Shown here: one piece after another, positions 23,011 to 24,390 of the stretch
Numbering within the stretch: position 1 is the stretch's first letter
Layout of the letters: each line of letters starts with the position of its first letter
DNA from: Escherichia coli
GTDB taxonomy: Bacteria > Pseudomonadota > Gammaproteobacteria > Enterobacterales > Enterobacteriaceae
DNA: 64,000 nucleotides
Reading direction: 5' to 3' (one strand)
Assembly: GCF_002854065.1 (NCBI RefSeq)
Contig: NZ_CP024147.1
The notes under the pieces: model-generated
Database searches by the model: none
What the model saw: the letters and a program-made list of their open reading frames with translations, nothing else
Told to the model about the DNA's origin: nothing
Program-made: the position numbers and the translations under genes

Positions 23011-23198
23011 TATTTGTCCTTAAACCATAAATAATTAAAAATATAAACATTGCAATACATTGATTCAGTCAATAGCAATTATTTATACCCAGCCATTGAA
23101 TAAGCTATCCGATCTAACTAACAAGAAAATAGGTCGCATAAGAAGATATTCTTTGGTGTGGGCGGATGGTGATATTTTGTCTTGGTAATGACTCCAAC

Positions 23199-23702
23199 TT
23201 ATTGATAGTGTTTTATGTTCAGATAATGCCCGATGACTTTGTCATGCAGCTCCACCGATTTTGAGAACGACAGCGACTTCCGTCCCAGCCGTGCCAGGTG
23301 CTGCCTCAGATTCAGGTTATGCCGCTCAATTCGCTGCGTATATCGCTTGCTGATTACGTGCAGCTTTCCCTTCAGGCGGGATTCATACAGCGGCCAGCCA
23401 TCCGTCATCCATATCACCACGTCAAAGGGTGACAGCAGGCTCATAAGACGCCCCAGCGTCGCCATAGTGCGTTCACCGAATACGTGCGCAACAACCGTCT
23501 TCCGGAGCCTGTCATACGCGTAAAACAGCCAGCGCTGGCGCGATTTAGCCCCGACGTATCCCCACTGTTCGTCCATTTCCGCGCAGACGATGACGTCACT
23601 GCCCGGCTGTATGCGCGAGGTTACCGACTGCGGCCTGAGTTTTTTAAATGGCGGAAAATCGTGTTGAGGCCAACGCCCATAATGCGGGCGGTTGCCCGGC
23701 AT
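23199..23702 (-). CDS. insB: IS1 InsB transposase reading frame
   Basis: 167-aa [19 protein letters not shown]... Confidence 0.9.
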
Positions 23703-23896
23703 CCAACGCCATTCATGGCCATATCAATGATTTTCTGGTGCGTACCGGGTTGAGAAGCGGTGTAAGTGAACTGCAGTTGCCATGTTTTACGGCAGTGAGA
23801 GCAGAGATAGCGCTGATGTCCGGCAGTGCTTTTGCCGTTACGCACCACCCCGTCAGTAGCTGAACAGGAGGGACAGCTGATAGAAACAGAAGCCAC
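23621..23896 (-). CDS. insA: IS1 InsA
   Basis: 91-aa [26 protein letters not shown]...; A6C frameshift window present. Confidence 0.9.
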
Positions 23897-24390
23897 TGGA
23901 GCACCTCAAAAACACCATCATACACTAAATCAGTAAGTTGGCAGCATCACCTTTTGTCTTTATTGTTTCAAATTATATTTACTTAACAGTGAATTAAGGA
24001 CCGCTTAATGTATAGCCAGAATAGAAATATTTTGAGGATTTTCTTATAAAAAAGAAATGAAATGCTTAAAAAAATATCTTACACATAATTTCAATTTATG
24101 AATAACCTGCGCAAAAAAGACAATCTTAGATTAAGTTTGAGATTGTACTTTTTTGAAGTTATACTATTAACACATCACAAATAATATTAAATTAAGACAC
24201 GAAAATATCATTTCTTTTTTATTATTAACTGTTCTATTAGTTTTATAATTTGTAAGAATATATTACAACTTAGTCTCATTTCGTCAGAAATTAATAGGGA
24301 AGCAGAGGAAAAAGTGCGATGAATTCTGTATCGAAGCGTATCAACTCCGTGAAAGGTTTTGAGTGAATATCTTCTATTGCAAAAAGACAA

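Follow-up and report, generated by a model that had tools for sequence, protein, structure and literature searches.

Upstream insertions of IS1 or IS5 are said to activate bgl, which is silenced by H-NS, and also flhDC, the reports usually named being those of Reynolds et al. 1981, Schnetz & Rak 1992 and Barker et al. 2004. In ST131, the afa regulatory region is a hot spot for insertion sequences (ISs), and one IS1 there raises Afa via a hybrid promoter and abolishes control by H-NS and IHF (PMC8764528). IS1 lowers transcription when upstream of osmB and has no effect upstream of ugd. A same-orientation upstream IS1 can raise, lower or leave unchanged the transcription of the gene that follows, depending on the presence of a −10 element at the right spacing (PMC8764528). 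That IS1 ends create hybrid promoters is credited to Prentki et al. 1986 (J Mol Biol 191:383), as that work is cited in later papers (PMC9330008, PMC8764528). Here, we analyze an IS1 copy located upstream of yfcV, the first gene of the yfcV-yfcO fimbrial operon, in a 64,000-nucleotide stretch of Escherichia coli DNA (contig NZ_CP024147.1; hereafter the window, whose numbering is used throughout). We interpret the event as most likely near-neutral and private to the strain, resulting from the preference of IS1 for AT-rich DNA at a locus that it has struck repeatedly across E. coli.

An IS1 insertion upstream of yfcV

A complete IS1 of 768 bp occupies positions 23184-23951 on the minus strand, the same direction as yfcV. 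It was delimited by its inverted repeats and by matches to the NCBIfam model transpos_IS1, and its insA-to-insB axis runs parallel to yfcV, with the right inverted repeat (IRR) facing that gene. On either side of the element is an exact 9-bp direct repeat, TTTTGTCTT, with the yfcV-proximal copy at 23175-23183 and the distal copy, 777 bp away, at 23952-23960. The IRR end is 173 bp from the ATG of yfcV (23010, minus strand).

To place the insertion among known genomes, we reconstructed the IS-free sequence and searched it against 5,426 complete E. coli genomes. Strain 100416 (NZ_CM128593.1; human stool, Gambia) carries the uninterrupted site as one continuous match of 99.9% identity. Compared with the window, this strain is 99.96% identical over the left flank of IS1 (2899-23183) and 99.93% identical over the right flank (23952-34615), with a single TTTTGTCTT at the join. 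The window's spacer allele family is uninterrupted in ∼428 complete genomes, O157:H7 (98.4%) among them. A 120-bp query made of IS1 and flank found no match spanning the junction in any of the 5,426 complete genomes. Likewise, the exact junction 38-mer had no matches in the JGI metagenomes and none in the GTDB collection of one genome per species (bacteria and archaea).

Because a near-identical strain has the empty site with one TTTTGTCTT, the insertion is a recent simple transposition, and the absence of its junction from the complete genomes, the metagenomes and the GTDB collection marks it as private. Measured against a relative of 99.9% identity, the IS1 insertion is therefore recent, and in the collections searched it is private. 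The original prediction had described a simple insertion bounded by a perfect 9-bp duplication and lying 173 bp upstream of yfcV, between that gene and the AT-rich spacer; both the duplication, present at each IS1 end and single in the IS-free relative, and the coordinates are borne out. It had also proposed a comparison with an IS-free yfcV upstream region, and strain 100416 supplies this, being collinear with the window across both junctions and missing IS1.

The element has all the parts of an IS1. Its IRR is GGTAATGACTCCAACTTATTGAT (23184-23206, plus strand) and its left inverted repeat (IRL) is GGTGATGCTGCCAACTTACTGAT (23929-23951, minus strand, hence present as the reverse complement in the window), both read from the sequence and recovered by pattern search. 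These terminal repeats are 23 nt long and imperfect, with 78% complementarity. A degenerate IS1-end pattern matched only twice in the window (23184-23951 and 51220-51987), compared to zero matches expected by chance, based on shuffled sequences. The insA gene (23896 to 23621, minus strand) is open from a GTG start, encodes 91 aa and matches the models for the IS1 zinc-binding domain and transpos_IS1. The insB frame (23702 to 23199, minus strand) is also open and matches transpos_IS1, and this model covers both frames. Between the two frames, at 23639-23645 on the minus strand, is the A6C motif AAAAAAC. In IS1, the InsAB' transposase is made via a −1 frameshift at this motif. Strain L73 has an IS1 that is 100% identical to the whole element, and its RefSeq annotation reads 'IS1-like element IS1B family transposase'. 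The IS1 copy upstream of yfcV is apparently transposition-competent.

A promoter-like site of the element's own, CTGCCA-16-TATGAT (23944 to 23917), overlaps IRL. The IRL promoter of IS1 is weak and repressed by InsA. IS1 insertions are classically polar, through Rho-dependent termination, and the element prefers AT-rich DNA as its target.

The yfc operon and the spacer divided by IS1

All seven yfc open reading frames (ORFs) are free of internal stops. The operon lies on the minus strand, between smrB and sixA, and its gene order is that of the Yfc (Stf-like) type: major subunit, usher, chaperone, three minor subunits and adhesin. The major fimbrial subunit gene yfcV (22447-23010) is intact, StfA-like and encodes 187 aa. 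It is followed by the intact usher gene yfcU (19726-22365), which encodes 879 aa from the annotated start, or 883 aa if the ORF is extended to the first ATG at 22377. Residues 1-879 of the usher align to positions 1-880 of the 881-position usher model NF011812, with a score of 1860 bits. The gene for the periplasmic chaperone, yfcS (18951-19703; 250 aa), is intact and StfD-like, and the remaining segment (16585-18935) contains the minor subunit genes yfcR, yfcQ and yfcP along with yfcO, all intact. NCBIfam models of StfA-, usher-, StfD-, StfE-, StfF- and StfG-like type match across the operon, with the exception of yfcO (16585-17415), the 276-aa tip adhesin, which has no NCBIfam match. The locus is syntenic with those of K-12, O157:H7 and CFT073.

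Given that all assembly genes are uninterrupted, the yfc operon is potentially functional. The usher had been predicted to be an uninterrupted 883-aa ORF, in contrast to the pseudogene of K-12, and the full-length model match agrees with the first part, as does the 'internal stop' annotated in K-12 yfcU with the second. As a special feature of this strain, however, the intact usher does not stand: the operon is also intact in O157:H7 and CFT073, and a survey described Yfc as a core-associated fimbrial type, intact in the genomes examined and functional but cryptic (PMC3559732). The intact usher is the rule in E. coli, and the K-12 pseudogene is the exception.

Two further observations concern the history of the operon. 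The adhesin gene yfcO, complete in the window, is frameshifted in the 99.96%-identical strain 100416 (positions 13687-14516 of its locus), such that the IS-free relative has a broken adhesin and the IS1-bearing strain a complete operon. In addition, the operon (16517-23183) is a mosaic. The part spanning yfcV, yfcU and yfcS (18954-23183) is 96.9% identical to O157:H7, and yfcR-yfcO has no megablast match to O157:H7. The entire operon is ∼83% identical to K-12, compared to ∼97% for the flanking genes sixA and fadJ.

Without IS1, the sixA-yfcV spacer would measure 645 bp. The element splits it into a proximal part of 173 bp (23011-23174, minus strand, plus the adjoining duplication copy), which stays attached to the operon, and a distal part of 472 bp (23961-24432, minus strand). 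The distal part, with a GC content of 20-36%, is moved 777 bp further from yfcV, and an element of ∼53% GC is placed between. At the far end of the spacer is the predicted intrinsic terminator of sixA, a hairpin followed by a U-rich tract (24388-24422, minus strand; fold −16 kcal/mol, z = −3.1). This terminator isolates the spacer from sixA transcription, and it follows that yfc needs a promoter of its own.

To locate candidates, we counted sigma-70-like matches of at least 8/12 positions on the yfcV strand. Ten of the 11 matches lie in the distal part, the best being TTAATA-17-TACAAT (24170 to 24142), and the proximal 173 bp contain a single weak match, CTGAAT-17-TATATT (8/12). Conservation shows the opposite trend. 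The proximal part is 73-97% identical to K-12, compared to 43-61% for the distal part, and its blocks CACACCAnAGAATA and TTCAATGGCTnnnTATAAA are kept across lineages, even in the very divergent CFT073 allele. A TATAAA located ∼80 bp before the yfcV ATG is conserved in the K-12, O157-type and CFT073 alleles. Thus, with regard to the position of the promoter, match density favors the distal part and conservation favors the proximal part.

The proximal region has a GC content of 22-42%. An exact match to the IHF consensus, AATCAATGTATTG, is found at 23053-23065 (minus strand), 43-55 bp upstream of the yfcV start, and is identical in the K-12 allele. Scans for IHF and H-NS motifs gave none within ∼100 bp of the insertion point.

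In K-12, the spacer has been listed as a 489-bp 'promoter island' bound by H-NS (PMC3661553). It also shows a binding peak of RNA polymerase holoenzyme, a predicted promoter (TTGAAA-17-TATAGT) and H-NS binding (PMC3946193). The hexamers of this predicted promoter precede the K-12 ATG by ∼384 bp and, as seen from yfcV, lie beyond the position that corresponds to the IS1 site.

Other IS1 insertions at the yfc locus

Thirty-two complete genomes have a same-orientation IS1 within ∼1.25 kb of yfcV. Another 60 have IS1 in the opposite orientation, mostly owing to one shared insertion in the 5' part of yfcU. Fifteen of these IS1-bearing loci were retrieved and inspected. Besides the window case, there are at least 10 independent same-orientation spacer insertions, positioned 19, 27, 156, 240, 288, 402, 449, 476, 480 and 655 bp upstream of yfcV. 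These other spacer copies are 768 bp long, each with its own 8-9 bp duplication. IS1 is also found inside yfcV (strains 1613, TUM9812, AF43 and N25) and between yfcV and yfcU (strain MB50).

By a rough density estimate, ∼17 genome-occurrences are expected per 1.3 kb, compared to at least 39 observed, an approximately 2-fold excess that is confounded by clonality. We considered whether the locus might be a strong IS1 hot spot and rejected the idea, as insertions are spread over the whole spacer and the excess is small and clonality-confounded. IS1 thus hits the yfc locus recurrently, as the AT-rich preference of the element would lead one to expect, but the locus is no dramatic hot spot. The recurrence of insertions points to target preference or locus decay rather than to a special event.

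One of these insertions is of particular relevance. The nine genomes of the E138 clone carry a divergent IS1 variant whose IRR end is separated from yfcV by 156 bp. This copy is oriented like that of the window, and its target, GACCAACAT, aligns with the 9-mer directly beside the window target. The operon was later broken by a further IS1 in the usher gene and by an inversion between the two copies. That the targets of the E138 clone and the window adjoin each other is the only notable point in this set of insertions, and a mildly interesting lead.

Several side observations emerged from the inspected loci. In E138 (locus positions 1355-4034), the two inverted IS1 copies have swapped target duplications (GACCAACAT and GCTTTTTGC), which show an IS1-mediated inversion of the segment containing yfcV and the 5' part of the usher gene. 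A third IS1, of the IS1X4 type, is located beside sixA in this strain. TUM9812 and AF43 have two IS1 variants at one site inside yfcV (1201-1968 of each locus), with duplications CAGTAAAGG and AGTAAAGG. The variants are IS1A and one that is only ∼90% identical to the window IS1, which suggests independent hits at a single yfcV site.

Possible effect on expression and comparison with known systems

How does the insertion affect the operon? On balance, we think it probable that the insertion is near-neutral or silencing in a cryptic operon, with yfc staying cryptic or becoming further silenced. A change of some sort in yfc expression is plausible. The following sequence of events would account for such an outcome. 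IS1 transposed into the AT-rich sixA-yfcV spacer, duplicating TTTTGTCTT, a step documented by the empty site. Of the 645 bp that natively precede yfcV, the distal 472 bp were thereby pushed 777 bp further away, and transcripts begun there would presumably no longer reach yfcV. The operon would then depend on any weak promoter within the conserved 173 bp still attached to it, together with traces of transcription leaving IS1. No usable hybrid promoter is predicted at the yfcV-facing end, and the element's own promoter would be weak and repressed by InsA.

Several points weigh against this scenario. Over three deeply diverged alleles, conservation in the spacer is confined to the proximal 173 bp, as would be expected if IS1 had left a core promoter in place. 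The promoter predicted in K-12 is not conserved in the window allele, according to the alignment. Moreover, consensus matches to promoters carry little weight when the DNA is AT-rich, and the literature searched gave no mapped yfcV transcription start for any allele, only the RNA polymerase binding and promoter-island data for K-12. Finally, no intrinsic terminator is predicted on the yfcV strand within IS1 or between insB and yfcV, and hence low-level read-through from the IS1 promoter would be possible. The idea that the AT-rich region holds the promoter, also part of the original prediction, thus fares unevenly: the distribution of matches (10 of 11) and the K-12 promoter island and polymerase peak speak for it, while the lack of conservation of the K-12 promoter and the conservation of the proximal 173 bp speak against it.

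A core promoter in the conserved 173 bp would also allow the opposite outcome, namely derepression. Here, the GC-richer IS1 would separate this promoter from the distal AT-rich DNA where H-NS would nucleate, silencing would weaken and Yfc would be switched on, in the manner of the IS1 and IS5 insertions at bgl and flhDC. We regard this as possible but doubtful. Along with the much higher conservation of the proximal segment, with its TATAAA in the K-12, O157-type and CFT073 alleles, the binding of H-NS to the K-12 spacer is in line with such a mechanism (PMC3661553, PMC3946193). Published expression data point the same way: yfcV goes up 5.2 log2-fold on overproduction of the PapB-family regulator TosR in CFT073 (PMC5956150), and it rises on overproduction of BolA in K-12 (PMC4337573). 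Because TosR and BolA induce yfcV, yfc appears to be a silenced but activatable operon, and all seven of its genes are intact. Moreover, the E138 clone acquired its IS1 independently at the neighboring 9-mer, with matching orientation and again immediately before the conserved block. However, at 22-42% GC, the proximal region could be bound by H-NS without the distal part, and its 173 bp contain no sigma-70 match of 9/12 or better. The usher of the E138 clone is broken by the second IS1 and the inversion, and hence nothing in that clone suggests that Yfc expression was selected for. Nor are IS1 insertions confined to this position; they are scattered over the entire spacer and extend into coding genes.

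A stronger version of derepression holds that −173, immediately before the blocks conserved across lineages, is a favored IS1 landing site, whose occupation switches on a cryptic but intact Yfc, making the locus a natural 'IS switch' in the style of bgl and flhDC. The pair behind this idea consists of the window strain and the E138-clone ancestor, with independent IS1 insertions at adjacent 9-mers in the same orientation. We consider such a switch unlikely.

The original prediction also raised the possibility of expression driven by IS-derived transcription. In that case, yfcV-yfcO would be driven by transcripts that begin at a hybrid promoter formed at the IRR junction, or that start at the IRL promoter and continue over insA-insB. 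IS1 and yfcV do have the same orientation, no intrinsic terminator is predicted inside IS1 or from the insB stop to yfcV, and an IS1 hybrid promoter has been found to raise expression of the afa fimbrial operon (PMC8764528). But at the yfcV-facing IRR junction, the sole possible hybrid site is TTGGAG-17-TATCAC, which matches the consensus at 7/12 positions and is without the conserved final T of the −10 element (the −7 T). No outward-facing −35 element that is 16-18 bp from a good −10 and directed at the gene was found on this side. The good −35, TTGGCA, sits at the opposite end of the element, outward from yfcV. There, it is part of a promoter-like hybrid site at the IRL end, TTGGCA-17-TATTGT (23938-23966, plus strand), a consensus match only (9/12), with its −35 inside IS1 and its −10 in the flank. 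This site is directed into the AT-rich spacer, opposite to yfcV, and is antisense to the 3' end of sixA. As for read-through, the weakness of the IRL promoter, its repression by InsA and the polarity of IS1, all general knowledge, count against it. Given the poor match of the yfcV-facing hybrid promoter, IS-driven expression is very unlikely, and this part of the original prediction is disfavored.

We attach negligible probability to the insertion being an assembly artefact, or an arm of an IS1 composite transposon together with the copy at 51220-51987. The window does contain two same-orientation IS1 copies 27.3 kb apart, but they differ at 8 positions and are each bounded by a perfect 9-bp duplication of their own (TTTTGTCTT and AATAAAATC), and on these grounds we reject such a reading. 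The collinearity of the flanks with the IS-free relative over both junctions also opposes it.

This second IS1 is complete, with its 8 differences from the yfcV copy being single nucleotides. The two direct copies bracket a 27.3-kb segment that includes sixA, fadJ, fadI, fadL, mlaA, yfdC, argW and part of an island. The segment could be deleted or amplified if the copies underwent homologous recombination.

Within 34593-51219, the tRNA-Arg(CCU) gene argW (34593-34667) is followed by a tyrosine integrase gene (34816-36033) and the island, which is absent from strain 100416. On the minus strand of the island are genes for a 769-aa protein without an NCBIfam match (46785-49094), a BrxD-like ATPase (45465-46781) and a DEXH helicase (43270-45468). 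In other genomes, RefSeq labels these three proteins as TerB N-terminal domain protein, DEAD/DEAH helicase and ATP-binding protein. The island is 99.8-99.9% identical in the best-matching genomes, and coverage of at least 80% is reached in 147 complete genomes. These genes may form a defence module.

Should the insertion leave Yfc expression unchanged, it would be a lineage marker, reflecting routine IS1 traffic in AT-rich DNA around a dispensable fimbrial locus. If instead the insertion changes Yfc expression, it would be a further example of IS1 rewiring adhesin expression at the strain level, as for Afa/Dr. In that event, the window strain and strain 100416 would also constitute a natural allele pair for locating the yfc promoter.

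How, then, does the window case compare with known ones? It resembles the other IS1 insertions at the yfc locus in its spacer location, orientation, length of 768 bp and duplication of 8-9 bp. None of these, however, shares the window junction, and several disrupt yfcV or yfcU, whereas the genes in the window are intact. As in bgl and flhDC, an IS is found in AT-rich DNA ∼100-500 bp upstream of a silent or weak operon, with the proximal region intact; H-NS binding is in our case taken from the K-12 spacer. Those mutants, though, were selected for an active phenotype and their promoters mapped, whereas the window case bears no sign of selection. With hybrid promoters of the type attributed to Prentki et al., the window shares an IRL end that provides a TTGGCA 17 bp from a flanking TATTGT. 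Unlike them, this site is a consensus match only, and it faces away from the fimbrial operon toward the 3' end of sixA.

The closest parallel is afa/dr of ST131 strain S10EC (Alvarez-Fraga et al. 2022, PMC8764528), in which IS1 likewise lies upstream of a chaperone-usher operon in the same orientation. In both cases, the regulatory region is rich in AT and repeatedly targeted by ISs, with H-NS control at afa and presumably also at yfc, and the insertion occurs only in a particular strain or subclone. The difference lies in the junction. In afa, the IS1 end and a flanking −10 form a strong hybrid promoter, and the gain of expression is experimental, whereas the yfcV junction, known from sequence, scores 7/12 and lacks the −7 T. 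That IS1 can alter the regulation of chaperone-usher fimbriae is thus already established, and the window case is a new instance of such an insertion, without the activating type of sequence signature.

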